Assembly (NCBI GenBank): GCA_025363635.1
Contig: JANYDL010000034.1
Span: forward strand, 14,555-38,554
Direction of reading: 5' to 3'
DNA from: Actinomycetes bacterium
Lineage (GTDB): Bacteria > Actinomycetota > Actinomycetes > Nanopelagicales > Nanopelagicaceae
DNA: 24,000 bases
The translations under genes were made by a program, and so were the position numbers. How positions within the stretch are numbered: position 1 is the first letter of the stretch; the number at the start of each line of letters is the position of its first letter. Shown here one piece after another: positions 4,435-10,529 of this stretch. The notes below the pieces were generated by a model. It saw only the letters and a list, made by a program, of their open reading frames with translations. It did no database searches and was not told the DNA's origin.

Positions 4435-4672
4435 TGTCATCTCCTTGTCGTGCGACCCAAGTGTGGGGAGTGGGTTGTCCACTAGGTAGTGAACATTCAA
4501 CCACCTATTACTTATTCCCGTTGTTAATTCTAAATTAAATCGGATTTTTCTTGATCTATTGTGCGCAGAATCTCGATATGTGGGCTCTTTCTCAGGAAGT
4601 GTTCATACTTGCAGTCGATTCTTGGGCGCGTTGAGAGAGATTGGCTCGTGCATTTCGCTAGCCTTTGCGCCC

Positions 4673-6754
4673 GTGAGTAAAGCAAATGCGAGTGCACAAC
4701 CTGCTGAGGTGAGTTATACCGCCAAGGATTTAGCTGTACTTGAAGGCTTGGATGCCGTCCGCAAACGACCTGGAATGTATATCGGTTCGACGGATTCTCG
4801 AGGATTACTGCACTGTCTTTGGGAAATAATCGACAATGCAGTGGACGAGGCGCTCGCAGGATTTTGCAAGAAGATTGATATCAATCTTGAAGCAGACGGC
4901 TCGGTGGAGGTGCACGATGATGGTCGAGGAATCCCCGTAGATAAGGAGCCAAAGACTGGGTTAACCGGCGTTGAGGTCGTGTTGACGAAATTGCATGCCG
5001 GTGGAAAATTCGGTGGCGGATCTTATGCAGCATCCGGAGGACTTCACGGGGTCGGTGCTTCAGTTGTAAATGCTCTAGCATCTCGCCTCGATGCAGAGGT
5101 CGATAGAGATGGCAAAATTTATTGGATGTCGTTTCAACGAGGCGTGGCAGGTATTTTTGATGGGGATGGTCCTCGAGCACCTTTTACGCCCACTTCAGGT
5201 CTTCGCAAGATTGGAACTGTTCCGAGAAAAGTGACCGGCACACGTATTAAATGGTGGAGCGATAAACAGATTTTTCTCAAAGAGGCAGAACTCGAACTCG
5301 AAGAAATTTATGCTCGCGCCCGTCAAACATCCTATCTCGTGCCGGGATTGACTTTGATAGTTAACGATAATCGCGACAAAGTCAGAACGTCAGAGACTTT
5401 TTATCATAAGGGTGGGATTTCCGAGTACTGCACATTCTTGCAACCTGATGAACCCATTGGGGATGTCATTCGGCTCAGCGGTGGTGGACATTATTCAGAG
5501 ACCGTTCCAGTTCTTGATGAGCAAGGCCACATGGTCTCGACTGAGGTAGAGCGAGATATGGGCGTTGACATTGCCATGAAATGGGGGAATGGATTCGAAA
5601 CGACAAATCGATCCTTCGTCAACATAATTGCGACCCCCAAGGGGGGCACCCATATGCAGGGATTTGAACGGGCGATCACGAAAGCATTCAATGAAGTTTT
5701 ACGATCGACAAAAACTCTGAAGAATAATGAAGCCGATGTTGTTAAGGATGACATTATGGAAGGGCTCACCGCTGTTATTACAGTGCGAATGTCAGAGCCA
5801 CAATTTGAGGGACAAACAAAGGAAGTTTTAGGAACTGCTGCGGCTACTCGCATCGTTGCTTCTGTTATTTCGGATGAAATGAAGGCGTTTTTTTCTACGA
5901 CAAAGAGGATTGATAAAGCTAACGGTCGCCTAATATTGGAAAAAGTAGTGGCGGCCTCGCGCACTCGAATCTCCGCCCGCGCCCATAAAGATCTGCAGCG
6001 TCGCAAGAATGCTTTAGAGAGTTCTTCTTTGCCGACGAAATTGTCGGATTGTCGCTCCGAGGATGTTTCCCGAACCGAACTCTTTATCGTTGAGGGAGAA
6101 TCTGCGTTAGGCACAACAAAAGCGGCAAGAAACTCAGAATTTCAAGCGATATTGCCTATTCGCGGGAAGATTCTAAATGTCCAGAAGGCCTCGCTTTCCC
6201 AAATGTTAGATAACACAGAATGTGCTTCGATCATTCAGGTGATCGGCGCTGGTTCAGGTCGTTCCTTCGAATTAGACGAGGCCCGCTATGGGCGAATAAT
6301 TCTCATGTCTGATGCCGACGTCGATGGGGCTCACATTCGCTGCCTCCTTCTGACTCTTCTCTATCGTTATATGCGTCCTCTCATTGATGCTGGTCGGGTA
6401 TTTGCGGCCATCCCACCTTTGCATCGAATAGAAGTAACAGGTTCTGGTGGCAAAAAAGGCGATTTCTACTACACCTATTCCGATGAGGAAATGCGAAAAG
6501 TCTTAGGAGATCTTGCCAAAGCAGGTAAGAAGTGGAAAGAACCCCTACAGCGATATAAGGGCCTCGGTGAGATGGATGCAGATCAATTGCGTGAGACCAC
6601 TATGGATCCAGATCATCGGACGCTGCGTCGTGTCACCGTGAATGATGCCGCGGCAGCAGATTCGATGTTTGAATTATTAATGGGAAATGAAGTTGCTCCA
6701 AGGAAGGACTTCATCACGACAGCAGAGATCGATCGTGATCGAATCGACGCTTAA
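4673..6754 (+). CDS. parE: Type IIA topoisomerase ATPase subunit, ParE-like (topoisomerase IV subunit B / GyrB paralogue)
   Basis: GHKL ATPase and Toprim motifs are present: LEGLDAVRKRPGMYIGSTDSRGLLHCLWEIIDNAVDEA, GGLHGVGASVVNALS, EGESALGTTKAARNSEFQAILPIRGKILNV, and MSDADVDGAHIRCLLLTLLYRYMRPLI. The EG(D/E)SALGT variant and the location next to hrdB fit the actinobacterial ParE clade rather than gyrB. The start is uncertain. GTG 4673 gives an N-terminus of normal length, whereas the track TTG 4559 adds 38 Cys/Ser-rich residues. Confidence 0.85.
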   Translation: MSKANASAQPAEVSYTAKDLAVLEGLDAVRKRPGMYIGSTDSRGLLHCLWEIIDNAVDEALAGFCKKIDINLEADGSVEVHDDGRGIPVDKEPKTGLTGVEVVLTKLHAGGKFGGGSYAASGGLHGVGASVVNALASRLDAEVDRDGKIYWMSFQRGVAGIFDGDGPRAPFTPTSGLRKIGTVPRKVTGTRIKWWSDKQIFLKEAELELEEIYARARQTSYLVPGLTLIVNDNRDKVRTSETFYHKGGISEYCTFLQPDEPIGDVIRLSGGGHYSETVPVLDEQGHMVSTEVERDMGVDIAMKWGNGFETTNRSFVNIIATPKGGTHMQGFERAITKAFNEVLRSTKTLKNNEADVVKDDIMEGLTAVITVRMSEPQFEGQTKEVLGTAAATRIVASVISDEMKAFFSTTKRIDKANGRLILEKVVAASRTRISARAHKDLQRRKNALESSSLPTKLSDCRSEDVSRTELFIVEGESALGTTKAARNSEFQAILPIRGKILNVQKASLSQMLDNTECASIIQVIGAGSGRSFELDEARYGRIILMSDADVDGAHIRCLLLTLLYRYMRPLIDAGRVFAAIPPLHRIEVTGSGGKKGDFYYTYSDEEMRKVLGDLAKAGKKWKEPLQRYKGLGEMDADQLRETTMDPDHRTLRRVTVNDAAAADSMFELLMGNEVAPRKDFITTAEIDRDRIDA

Positions 6755-7470
6755 ACTAAATTCTTTATACCTTGAGAGAGAAATAGATCTCGGTAACGCT
6801 GTAGATCTTGGGAATTCGCCGGCGACCATGAGCGCGCCGTGGCTCGGACGCCATGAGTCATAAATGCATTTATCTTGACTCTCATATCAGTATCAATTGC
6901 TAGCAGAAAGCGCGCCGTTGATATCAGATCTTCATCGGAGTCATTTTGTGATGGAACGAGCAGGAGGCGGACTTCGAACAACTTATTTATGGAAGCAAGA
7001 AACTTGATCGAGTCCAAAACTTGTTTGTTTGAATTTCCAGTCAATTCGAAATGTTTTTCATCATCAAGGACTTTCAGATCCAACATCACCCCATCAGTCA
7101 CAGGGGCAAGTGAACGCCATACATCTTCAGGGGCGTTACCATTGCTATCTATGAACGTCGTTAGATGTTGGAGATCTGGAGTTGTTTTTATGGCCTGGAA
7201 AAGTTCCGAAATGAATTCATATTGCATAGTGGCCTCGCCACCCGAGATGGTGACACCTGAAATGTAAGGCATAGACGCGCGAATTTTGAGGAGAAGATCT
7301 TCGACTGAATAAAGTGTTGCTCGCGGAGTCTGAAGTGGAATTGTTTGAGGATTGTGACATGCTAAACAGTTGAAATTGCATCCTTGAAGGAAGAGAACAA
7401 ATCTATTGCCGGGTCCATCTACCCAAGAAAATGAAATAACATCAGCTACCAGCGCGTGGTGAGCTTTCAT
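6751..7470 (-). CDS. Glycyl-radical enzyme activating protein (radical SAM, PflA/YjjW-like)
   Basis: The N-terminal SFSWVDGPGNRFVLFLQGCNFNCLACHNP combines the activase DGPG.R...F..GC block with the CxxxCxxC cluster. GGEA serves as the SAM-binding motif. At 239 aa it has no ferredoxin insert. Its stop overlaps the convergent parE stop within TTAA (6751-6754). Confidence 0.85.
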   Translation of the reverse strand: MKAHHALVADVISFSWVDGPGNRFVLFLQGCNFNCLACHNPQTIPLQTPRATLYSVEDLLLKIRASMPYISGVTISGGEATMQYEFISELFQAIKTTPDLQHLTTFIDSNGNAPEDVWRSLAPVTDGVMLDLKVLDDEKHFELTGNSNKQVLDSIKFLASINKLFEVRLLLVPSQNDSDEDLISTARFLLAIDTDMRVKINAFMTHGVRATARSWSPANSQDLQRYRDLFLSQGIKNLV

Positions 7471-8980
7471 GGCTCATGACCCGCTTTACTTGACGTTGAT
7501 CTACATGGGAGTCGGCGACCGAGCCCGCCCCTAAATACGTACTCCCATGTCGGGCGCTGGGCATTTTAGCTAAATCAGATTTTCGCACAAGGTAGCCCGT
7601 TATTCGGATGAAGTCGTTGCTATCTAGATTAAAAGTAAAATCGCGCATCCCATTTGCGAAGGCACCACGAATTATGTCAACGACGGCTTCAGGATTTTTC
7701 ACTGCGGTTTCGTCGAAGGAGAGAATGTCGCTTATCCCAGCAGCAAAAAGGTGATGATGGCGACTCACCGTGCGAAGATGTTCGATTAGTGGCGGTTCCG
7801 TGCCGATAGGGATGCGAGTACCTGCCGTCACGCCAAGGTCAAGATCAATGCCTGATTGAGAATGCAGAAAGGCTCTCCCCGCATTTCCGTCGCAATAAGG
7901 CATGGGTCGACTGGCAACGATTTGAGCGATCGTTGACGTGATTCTGTATCCCAAATCATCGGCAATGGAACTGTGCCCGTAGGTGCCTTCTAAACCTTCT
8001 CGTCGCATTAAAATATTGACCGCTTCTGCGAGACCGAAGATGCCGAACATGGCTGAAAATTTATCTAGAGTAAGCAATCCTTCTTTTACCAGCCAATTCG
8101 AAGTATAGAAGTTAGATTCTTCGACCAAGAATCGAATGCGCGCTTCCATGAGTTCGGAAGTTAATTCCAGGTAATGTGGCAACGTTTCCGCAAAGAATTT
8201 CTCTACTCCTCCTTCGCCAGCAAGAACAGTTTCTTTCAAATTTATCCGCACCAAAGTATGCGATCCTCCGCCGATCTTGAGAGAGTTGTAACAACTTACC
8301 GCCGCATAATCAGGTCCTAGATTACTTTTCATCATCACGTCATTGATGAAGTGAGGCTTGCCGCAAGCAAAGACAGTCTGGACGGCATCTAAAACATATT
8401 CATCACTTGTTACATGAGGATCTACTTTGAGGCTTATGTTCGGTACAACCTGCAAAAGTTCGCGCTCTAAAGCAAGAATCGTCTTCGCGACGCGATTGTA
8501 AACGGGGCTGAGATTTGTATGAGCAAAGGCATCAGGAAACATGCGATCAAGAGATATCCAAAAACGCTTTAATTTGGTGTACAGATCAGCATCACTCACA
8601 TCGTTGATGTACGGGAGGAGCAGTGTGTCTAAATCTCCGAAGTACACTGGATAACCAGTAATGGAGGGAGTCTGAGAATAAATAATTAGAAGAAAAGCGA
8701 GAGCGTCATCGATATTCGCTGCTGGAGGAAGCTCCAGAAAGAGAGAACCTTCCCGCAGAGTCCTTGCATAATCAGGCAGCAGATAGCGTGGACGATAGGG
8801 AGCGCTTCCTTCAAACATGTCGCAGATGATTCTTTTTTCCAGAGCCTGCGCGCACTCGTCGCTTATGTGGGGTGGCTCGAGAAGGTTTTCGGCCAAAGTT
8901 GCCAGACCTGCCACTCGTTGCCGATAGGTGTATTTGGGGTCGGTCACCATCGCGCGAATTTGAGGCAAGGTTGGAAACAT
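7442..8980 (-). CDS. Glycyl-radical enzyme of unknown function, YjjI family (DUF3029)-like
   Basis: The protein is 512 aa. It has a C-terminal glycyl-radical fingerprint (FIRITGYLVRKSDL, the RxxGY type), a candidate thiyl Cys in AAVSCYNSLKIGGGSHTLVRINL, and a size typical of the short YjjI-type enzymes. It lies immediately upstream of, and overlaps by 29 nt, a glycyl-radical activase. The start is set at ATG 8980 (MFPTLPQ), 13 nt after AGGAG. The track ORF start at 9166 would overlap parC. Confidence 0.7.
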   Translation of the reverse strand: MFPTLPQIRAMVTDPKYTYRQRVAGLATLAENLLEPPHISDECAQALEKRIICDMFEGSAPYRPRYLLPDYARTLREGSLFLELPPAANIDDALAFLLIIYSQTPSITGYPVYFGDLDTLLLPYINDVSDADLYTKLKRFWISLDRMFPDAFAHTNLSPVYNRVAKTILALERELLQVVPNISLKVDPHVTSDEYVLDAVQTVFACGKPHFINDVMMKSNLGPDYAAVSCYNSLKIGGGSHTLVRINLKETVLAGEGGVEKFFAETLPHYLELTSELMEARIRFLVEESNFYTSNWLVKEGLLTLDKFSAMFGIFGLAEAVNILMRREGLEGTYGHSSIADDLGYRITSTIAQIVASRPMPYCDGNAGRAFLHSQSGIDLDLGVTAGTRIPIGTEPPLIEHLRTVSRHHHLFAAGISDILSFDETAVKNPEAVVDIIRGAFANGMRDFTFNLDSNDFIRITGYLVRKSDLAKMPSARHGSTYLGAGSVADSHVDQRQVKRVMSHESSPRAGS

Positions 8981-9008
8981 GATTGAAAGGGTACTCCTGG
9001 TTTTGCTT

Positions 9009-10529
9009 TTAGATTGCTTCCAGGATTGTCGTTTTTCGAGGGGAAGCGAAGGATTTCCCAACGGCGGTGAGCTCGTCGCTGACCTGCTTGCGAATATTCG
9101 CCTCAGATTTGAGCAATGTGGTGAGATTGGCAATTGTGGTTGAGAGTTCTTTTTGTTCACCTTCAAGTTCTAGTTTGGACATTTTGGTGAGTCGTCGCAA
9201 TGGCATATCTAGAATGTAGGTGGCTTGCTCTTCGTTGAGCTTGAAACTCTTCATTAACGCTTCTTTTGCCACGGCGGCATCATCACTACTTCGAATAATC
9301 TTGATGACTTTATCGATATCGATGATTGCCTTGAGCAGGCCATCAACGAGAGTTAAGCGGCCCGTGGCTTTGGCTCTTCTAAATTCAGATCGCCTTTTCA
9401 CCACTTCAATTCTGTGAGAGATAAATACTTGCAGCAACTCTTTAAGTCCTAAAGTTTGCGGCCTTCCATTTACCAGTGCGACAGCATTAATGGAGAACGT
9501 ATCTTCCATTGGAGTGAGCTTGAACAATTGTTCTAATACTGCCTCTGGTTCAAACCCATTCTTTAGCTCGATAACAACGTTTGTTCCGGTTCTACCGTCG
9601 GTGAGGTCGATGATGTCTGAGATTCCTGTAATCTTCTTTGCTTTCGCGAGATCAGCAATTCTCTCCACAACTTTTTCTGGACCGATTGTGAAAGGCAATT
9701 CCTTTATAGTTATACCCATTTTGCGAGAGGTAACTTTTCCAATTTCGACTCTCGCACGCACCTTGAAGCTTCCCTTTCCGGTTGCGTAGGCATCGCGCAC
9801 TCCCTCAACGCCCACGAGTTGACCACCAGTGGGAAAATCGGGACCAGGGACAAATTTCATAAGCTGTTTCAAAGTCGCATTGGGGTTTTCAATGAGAAAT
9901 TTGGTCGCTGCAATTACTTCGCCAAGGTTATGGGGCGCCATATTGGTCGCCATACCCACAGCAATTCCCGAACCGCCATTAACGAGCAAATTTGGGTAAG
10001 CCGCTGGCAGTACTAAAGGTTCAAGCAACTGCCCATCGTAGTTGGACCCAAAATCAACGGTGTTTTCGTCGGCTTCCGCAACCATCGCCATCGCTGAGAG
10101 TGCCAGTCTGGCTTCGGTGTAGCGCATCGCCGCCGGTCCAGCATCGAGAGAACCAAAATTCCCATGTCCATCGATAAGGGGGAGTCGCATCGAGAAGGAT
10201 TGCGCCATTCGTACGAGGGCGTCATAGATGGCTCCATCCCCGTGAGGATGCAACTTACCCATGACTTCTCCAACGACTCGAGCGCTTTTCACATGGCCTC
10301 GTTCAGGACGAAGTCCCATATCTGCCATCTGATGAAGAATCCGGCGATGGACGGGTTTTAGTCCGTCTCTGGCATCGGGGAGCGCCCTGGAATAGATGAC
10401 CGAATATGCGTATTCAAGAAAAGAGCCAGACATTTCTGAGGCAACGTCGATATCGACTATTTTTCCTGGGTATTCACCAGGTTTTGGTCCAATTGCTTTC
10501 TTGCCTTTTGTTACACGTGGAGTCGCCAT
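9009..10529 (-). CDS. parC: Type IIA topoisomerase DNA breakage-reunion subunit, ParC-like (GyrA paralogue), lacking the C-terminal beta-pinwheel domain
   Basis: Conserved blocks are FLEYAYSVIYSRALPDARDGLKPVHRRILHQM, GKLHPHGDGAIYDALVRMAQ.FS and the catalytic Tyr in GPAAMRYTEARL. The tower and coiled-coil reach ILDMPLRRLTK...LEGEQKEL. The ORF stops after SPRKTTILEAI (506 aa). In full-length ParC/GyrA of about 750-850 aa, that is where the C-terminal domain begins. Confidence 0.85.
   Translation of the reverse strand: MATPRVTKGKKAIGPKPGEYPGKIVDIDVASEMSGSFLEYAYSVIYSRALPDARDGLKPVHRRILHQMADMGLRPERGHVKSARVVGEVMGKLHPHGDGAIYDALVRMAQSFSMRLPLIDGHGNFGSLDAGPAAMRYTEARLALSAMAMVAEADENTVDFGSNYDGQLLEPLVLPAAYPNLLVNGGSGIAVGMATNMAPHNLGEVIAATKFLIENPNATLKQLMKFVPGPDFPTGGQLVGVEGVRDAYATGKGSFKVRARVEIGKVTSRKMGITIKELPFTIGPEKVVERIADLAKAKKITGISDIIDLTDGRTGTNVVIELKNGFEPEAVLEQLFKLTPMEDTFSINAVALVNGRPQTLGLKELLQVFISHRIEVVKRRSEFRRAKATGRLTLVDGLLKAIIDIDKVIKIIRSSDDAAVAKEALMKSFKLNEEQATYILDMPLRRLTKMSKLELEGEQKELSTTIANLTTLLKSEANIRKQVSDELTAVGKSFASPRKTTILEAI

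Follow-up and report, generated by a model that had tools for sequence, protein, structure and literature searches.

Two tightly packed genes lie between convergent parC-like and parE-like topoisomerase genes in a 24,000-nucleotide stretch of an Actinomycetes bacterium genome (Nanopelagicaceae; assembly GCA_025363635.1, contig JANYDL010000034.1, positions 14,555 to 38,554 of the forward strand; this whole stretch is referred to as the window), and an earlier reading of the letters alone (the original prediction) had taken them for a YjjI-type glycyl radical enzyme and its activase. Are these genes a genuine glycyl radical system that is still in use, and is their place between parC and parE a recent one? 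The evidence below leads us to conclude that the pair is very probably a functional, self-contained YjjI/YjjW system that is carried as accessory cargo in a hypervariable convergent parC/parE junction.

Family membership and catalytic residues

The larger of the two predicted proteins (512 amino acids) matches model TIGR04040 with 671.2 bits (cut-off 498.3) from model position 2 to 497 of 497 and PF11230 (the former DUF3029) with 643.9 bits (cut-off 23, E 1.7e-193), in both cases over the full length, and shares 45% identity with E. coli YjjI from end to end (E 4e-159). In an alignment of 18 diverse family members that share 32–58% identity with the window protein, no cysteine other than Cys230 is invariant; S229 and N232 are invariant alongside it, as are R459 and G462 and a further set of residues (E57, R65, Y66, H154, N181, R245, E300, H373, Q375, D381, R389 and R496). 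Gly462 and Cys230 are invariant in 43 close homologues too, and they align with Gly465 and Cys236 of E. coli YjjI, respectively. The R-[IV]-[TS]-G-[YF] glycine loop of the family is present as RITGY (residues 459–463) and the conserved S-C-Y-N cysteine loop as VSCYNSL (residues 228–234), the latter identical to E. coli VSC236YNSL, and the two motifs picked out by the original prediction thus do stand at catalytic positions. A dedicated YjjW-type activase gene adjoins yjjI downstream, as is expected of the family, and on sequence grounds the 512-residue protein is confirmed as a genuine YjjI-family glycyl radical enzyme. Gly465 of the E. coli protein has been labelled in living cells by a radical-trapping probe (August 2026 preprint).

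The putative activase, a 239-codon open reading frame, matches TIGR04041 with 251 bits, which is barely above the cut-off of 250.2, while the other activase models fall far under their own cut-offs; PF04055 (67 bits) and PF13353 also match. The radical S-adenosylmethionine (SAM) motif CX3CX2C is formed by C31, C35 and C38, all invariant in the YjjW alignment, and the GGE SAM motif is present as SGGEAT. These features, with 46% identity to E. coli YjjW, bear out the activase identity claimed earlier. The window protein is nevertheless unlike its E. coli counterpart in one respect: it has three cysteines in total, all in the radical SAM motif, against 16 in E. coli YjjW, whose 43-residue insert (8 cysteines, two CX2CX2CX3C ferredoxin motifs) is absent from it, and the TIGR04041 match accordingly skips model positions ~38–86. 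Among the related loci, which were collected with a 6-sequence alignment, short activases (231–241 residues, mostly with 3–5 cysteines) make up the Actinomycetes-class subclade, and long ones with ferredoxin motifs (277–287 residues) occur in Acidimicrobiia, a Trueperaceae-type clade, Firmicutes, Anoxybacter and Atribacteria. Since the short form is confined to that subclade and the long form is found elsewhere, the ferredoxin insert was lost inside the actinobacterial lineage, and we treat the window YjjW as a variant within the TIGR04041 family that lies at its cut-off.

The E. coli K-12 pair (YjjI, b4380; YjjW, b4379) thus shares with the window pair its gene order, the VSCYNSL loop, the R(I/V)TGY loop and CX3CX2C. 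It differs in setting: a deo operon stands beside the E. coli pair and none beside the window pair, the window host is an aerobic actinobacterium of fresh water with a small genome, and the window pair has a candidate leaderless promoter (below).

Selection, age and the parC/parE junction

Could the pair be a non-functional leftover that is being lost from an aerobe? Its occurrence is patchy, as the family model matches 5 of the 32 genomes of the genus and 17 of the 201 of the order, the gene complement of the host is aerobic (below), and the yjjI of one relative carries an in-frame stop. Yet in the window both frames are intact, all catalytic residues and the overlap between the two genes have been kept, and hundreds of close homologues are present in metagenomes (more than 2000 homologues were found there; the best 120 are 73–92% identical to the window YjjI, and several of them already bear the name "YjjI family glycine radical enzyme"). 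Nonsynonymous divergence (dN) is 0.05–0.13 with saturated synonymous sites, the same as for parC, and although this saturation makes dN/dS ratios not computable for most pairs of sequences, low dN at saturated synonymous sites, as in parC, indicates strong purifying selection. We consider decay very unlikely, and a maintained, functional pair the better account. The stop in the relative (L119:8001-9500, an Actinomycetota metagenome-assembled genome) is a single one and could mark a pseudogene or a sequencing error. The family as a whole is a small one: among 1.84 billion representative proteins it accounts for 488 clusters.

The second question is that of age. The original prediction had the pair inserted between parE and parC, and relatives in which the interval is empty or otherwise filled agree with that wording; a recent insertion by a mobile element, or a transfer from a distant anaerobe, might be supposed from such empty sites (268 bp in G014) and from the different positions of the pair in different lineages, namely after regX3 in Planktophila-type genomes and within a 12-kb island in G012. 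Recency is the part that does not hold. No integrase, transposase or flanking repeat was found at the pair and there is no room for one, and the GC content of the pair (0.46–0.47) matches its surroundings. In the protein tree the window YjjI is nested in a Nanopelagicaceae subclade (98% support) within an actinobacterial clade (100%) that also holds sequences from Nocardioides, Dactylosporangium, Jatrophihabitantaceae, Acidimicrobiia and two Trueperaceae bins. The tight yjjI-yjjW pair occupies the parC-parE interval in the window's own genome (G000) and in G004 and G002, which form one clade with 98% support in a tree of two flanking proteins, the kinase and ParC, and the junctions in G004 are identical to those of the window even though the two genomes have diverged to saturation at synonymous sites. 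A recent arrival is therefore about as improbable as decay; the pair is old and has been inherited within a three-species clade, and its placement is that of old cargo in a flexible-island site. The two Trueperaceae bins (L117 and L122, metagenome-assembled genomes binned as Deinococcota), whose YjjI falls within the actinobacterial clade, have the long ferredoxin-type activase, and lateral transfer or a binning error could account for them.

That the site is flexible is clear from the genus. Among 30 genus genomes the convergent parC-parE interval (6751-9011 in the window, with further copies in L046-L055) has at least six alternative contents: it is empty in 6, and holds a NUDIX gene in 5, an ATP-binding cassette (ABC) island in 5, an MMPL gene in 3, a dehydratase gene in 3, the tight yjjI-yjjW pair in 3 and other cargo in 5. 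The dehydratase is of the IlvD/Edd type, and the MMPL cargo comes with TetR, plus a Fic gene in the one genome that was examined in full. These kinds of cargo are largely clade-specific on the flanking-gene tree. The view that the pair sits oddly within a conserved housekeeping neighbourhood must accordingly be given up, as the parC/parE junction is a hot spot of variable content.

Some details of the interval in other genomes may be recorded here. The ABC cargo is a 12-kb island with ABC, amidohydrolase and CN-hydrolase genes. In G012 the pair lies inside such an island in the same interval (L049:2427-8006), where yjjI and yjjW are followed on the same strand by genes for a homocysteine S-methyltransferase (PF02574) and a metallophosphoesterase and are preceded divergently by a CN-hydrolase gene, an Amidohydro_3 gene and a polyamine-type ABC transporter; this divergent part is also found in G020. 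The empty interval of G014 (L047:7977-8245) has a possible 45-codon open reading frame (VTTDSEKALSDYLKLHQNQ...).

The dimensions of the window junction had been read correctly. There are 28 nt between the parC stop codon (TAA, 9011-9009) and the yjjI start, yjjI and yjjW overlap by 29 nt, and the 4-nt TTAA at 6751-6754 is common to the stop codons of yjjW and parE (TAA, 6752-6754). The ParC-like protein matches PF00521 with 498 bits, and NF004044 covers it over model positions 2–479 of 738; the ParE-like protein matches NF004189 with 778 bits. The parE frame was listed as 731 codons from TTG 4559, with an N-terminus ~40 residues longer than that of its relatives, which are ~690 residues long and start near ...SYTAKDLAVLEG, so that the true start is probably further downstream. 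A short ParC-like protein is found in all 32 genus genomes (open frames of 516–617 codons in 31 of them, and one copy cut by a contig end), and the whole C-terminal beta-pinwheel domain is missing from this subunit genus-wide (loci L016-L045), whatever cargo comes after the gene, while GyrA of the genus is normal (~830 residues, with six DNA_gyraseA_C repeats). We considered whether arrival of the pair had truncated ParC, and rejected this because the short form is present in all 32 genomes. Table 1 gives the positions of these genes and of the features discussed here.

Table 1. Positions of the yjjI-yjjW pair, its predicted functional sites and its flanking genes in the window.
Feature	Position	Strand	Remarks
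yjjI, 512-aa YjjI-family glycyl radical enzyme	7442..8980	-	ATG 8980, stop TGA 7444-7442
yjjW, 239-aa radical SAM activase, short form	6751..7470	-	ATG 7470, stop TAA 6753-6751
Gly462 codon (RITG462Y), predicted glycyl radical site	7595..7597	-	Invariance; alignment with E. coli G465
Cys230 codon (VSC230YNSL), predicted thiyl radical cysteine	8291..8293	-	Sole family-invariant Cys; alignment with NrdD C384
CX3CX2C (C31, C35, C38) of yjjW, putative radical SAM [4Fe-4S] cluster motif	7357..7380	-	Sequence
29-nt overlap of yjjI end and yjjW start, probable translational coupling	7442..7470	-	
TACCCT, -10-like TANNNT hexamer, candidate leaderless promoter	8988..8993	-	7 nt upstream of yjjI ATG
AGGAG, Shine-Dalgarno-like	8994..8998	-	13 nt upstream of yjjI ATG, read from sequence
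parC-like subunit A flank, 506 aa, lacking the C-terminal domain	9009..10529	-	PF00521, NF004044
parE-like subunit B flank, convergent	4559..6754	+	NF004189; true start probably downstream of 4559

Predicted fold and comparison with NrdD and pyruvate formate-lyase

A sequence search of the PDB with YjjI returned no homologue, and the fold was therefore taken from an AlphaFold2 model built from 43 sequences (predicted local distance difference test score, pLDDT, 85.5; predicted template modelling score, pTM, 0.88). Foldseek gave 140 PDB matches to this model at E ≤ 0.001, and the best 50 of the 140 are all NrdD, pyruvate formate-lyase (PFL) or other glycyl radical enzymes. The top matches are to the class III ribonucleotide reductase NrdD (9dau, 1h78 and 8p27 are the closest solved folds), with E values of 6e-15 to 1e-13, template modelling (TM) scores of 0.62–0.73 and 12–16% identity, and they are followed by PFL, PflD, YbiW and glycerol dehydratase. 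The protein is thus predicted to have the fold of the glycyl radical enzyme superfamily, a 10-stranded barrel with glycine and cysteine finger loops. An hhalign alignment places Cys230 on C384 of E. coli NrdD (in its PMGC motif); this alignment ended at residue 362, short of the glycine loops.

Is the window YjjI then a divergent class III ribonucleotide reductase that would supply deoxyribonucleoside triphosphates without oxygen? Besides the fold and the alignment of the finger-loop cysteine, the RITGY loop resembles the RVCGY of NrdD, residues 180–353 give a weak and partial match to the Pfam NRDD model (30 bits), and a small activase with no auxiliary clusters is a further likeness. However, identity to NrdD is low (above), and the window protein is ~200 residues shorter, with neither an ATP-cone nor the second catalytic cysteine and zinc-binding Cys4 site of NrdD; it has 5 cysteines in total and C230 alone is invariant, which leaves no second redox cysteine and no Cys4 zinc site by the glycine loop. 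The NCBIfam profile search gave no NrdD match for YjjI, the genome already has an oxygen-independent class II NrdJ (1559 bits), which is its only ribonucleotide reductase, and E. coli retains both NrdD and YjjI. A reductase role is highly improbable in the light of these differences, and the window YjjI is not an NrdD despite having its closest fold there.

The PflB/PflA system is likewise similar in part. PflB has the glycyl radical barrel fold (1mzo, E 4e-13), and the window activase is as short as PflA and matches TIGR02493 with 148 bits. The PflA cut-off of 231.75 is not reached, however, YjjI lacks the Cys-Cys pair and is about two thirds the length of PflB, and neither PF01228 nor PF02901 has a match in the window's genome.

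Expression, proposed mechanism and host

The two genes behave as a module. In 78 of 81 loci yjjW comes after yjjI and no other neighbour is conserved, the pair stands alone in six distant lineages, and in Planktophila-type genomes it is located after senX3-regX3. The overlap between the two genes has this exact length of 29 nt in E. coli K-12 as well as in 67 of the 80 related loci, and measures 7–26 nt in Firmicutes and Halanaerobiales. It is scarcely credible that the pair works with the flanking topoisomerase genes, to which it is tightly packed by the 28-nt gap and the 4-nt overlap, since the same parC and parE are found without it in 27 of 32 genus genomes, it lies at unrelated sites in other lineages, where it was not seen together with parC/parE, and the short ParC is genus-wide. 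Two other neighbourhood ties in the genus were considered and rejected: the phosphate two-component system neighbours the site with or without the pair, and psuG/PfkB is found upstream of parC with or without the pair and is thus uninformative about a tie to psuG/psuK.

Does the pair depend on its neighbours for transcription? Of 77 related loci, 50 have a TANNNT hexamer at a distance of 6 or 7 nt before a candidate yjjI start (and none has one at 5 or 8 nt), compared with a rate of 2.9% at internal start-like codons that were used as a control. TANNNT just before the start codon is the layout of actinobacterial leaderless promoters. This pattern suggests that the pair may have its own leaderless promoter, and with such a layout the 28-nt gap need not mean co-transcription with parC. 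The window hexamer, TACCCT, would probably serve as this leaderless-type promoter, its upstream part overlapping the end of parC; transcription may also run on from parC. An AGGAG is found in G000 and G004 and is weaker in G002, and a terminator scan found none at the cassette. Translation of yjjW is probably coupled to that of yjjI through the overlap.

The mechanism that we propose is drawn from the established chemistry of glycyl radical enzymes. YjjW would bind one [4Fe-4S] cluster through C31, C35 and C38 and reductively cleave S-adenosylmethionine, and the resulting 5'-deoxyadenosyl radical would take a hydrogen atom from Gly462 of YjjI. The radical, stored on this glycine, would then be handed to Cys230 on the finger loop of the NrdD-like barrel, and the Cys230 thiyl radical would in turn take a hydrogen atom from a small-molecule substrate. 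Because oxygen destroys the glycyl radical, the system is expected to work only in a hypoxic cell. The anaerobic or micro-oxic capability that the original prediction read from the pair is a presumed one. Anaerobic induction has been reported for yjjI and yjjW in Yersinia and for yjjI in enterobacteria, where the gene clusters with narG under FNR and NarL motifs.

As to the substrate, a nucleoside- or ribose-derived compound is our working guess, held tentatively and as rather less likely than otherwise. The hints are deoCABD beside the E. coli pair, a PnrA-like Bmp transporter that adjoins the pair in 6 of 81 actinobacterial loci, and psuK/psuG at a distance of 5 kb from the pair in one genome.

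The host genome, that of a freshwater Nanopelagicales bacterium, is 1.85 Mb long and 98% complete, and YjjI/YjjW is its only glycyl radical system; no second activase was found in it. The genome's only match to cytochrome bd subunit I is a 65-residue fragment outside the window (G000:C84:16743-16937) with two TGA stops in the match and a local open frame of 94 codons, and it looks like a gene remnant. A literature search found no link of glycyl radical enzymes to Nanopelagicales.

Several observations weigh against a working glycyl radical system in such a host. The genome looks aerobic, with three haem-copper oxidase genes, and a search of it found neither a PFL-type Gly_radical domain nor NrdD; cultured Nanopelagicales were undetected in anoxic samples (PMC12817590). 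The YjjI class is still uncharacterised, as the original prediction said, in that no YjjI experiment has shown a glycyl radical by electron paramagnetic resonance or any reaction (August 2026 preprint). A scan for the sigma-70 consensus found no promoter at the cassette, and the nucleoside link is weak in our sample, with none in five other distant genomes that were checked.

A bolder reading is that actinobacterial YjjI with its single-cluster activase is routinely used by oxygen-exposed freshwater plankton to carry out a radical reaction not yet described, with scavenged compounds derived from nucleosides or ribose as its substrates. YjjI would then be switched on in transient hypoxia or in particles, or would be unusually oxygen-tolerant. 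We regard this as improbable, although less so than decay or recent insertion; if it were true, acI-type bacteria would have a hidden low-oxygen metabolism.

Apart from the open function of its family, then, the find is largely ordinary and its site is an ordinary flexible island. The pair is intact and maintained by selection, and it belongs to a family already known and catalogued, of which it represents a derived, actinobacterial form whose activase is minimal. The find alone does not disclose what YjjI does, and YjjI is among the last E. coli glycyl radical enzymes without a known reaction. As the sole glycyl radical system of a streamlined aerobic lake bacterium the pair is ecologically mildly unexpected, and the cultivable Planktophila-type carriers are suggested as test organisms. 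For the family, each well-conserved new lineage such as this one adds comparative data on which residues are invariant, on a naturally occurring activase that lacks auxiliary clusters, and on neighbouring genes.

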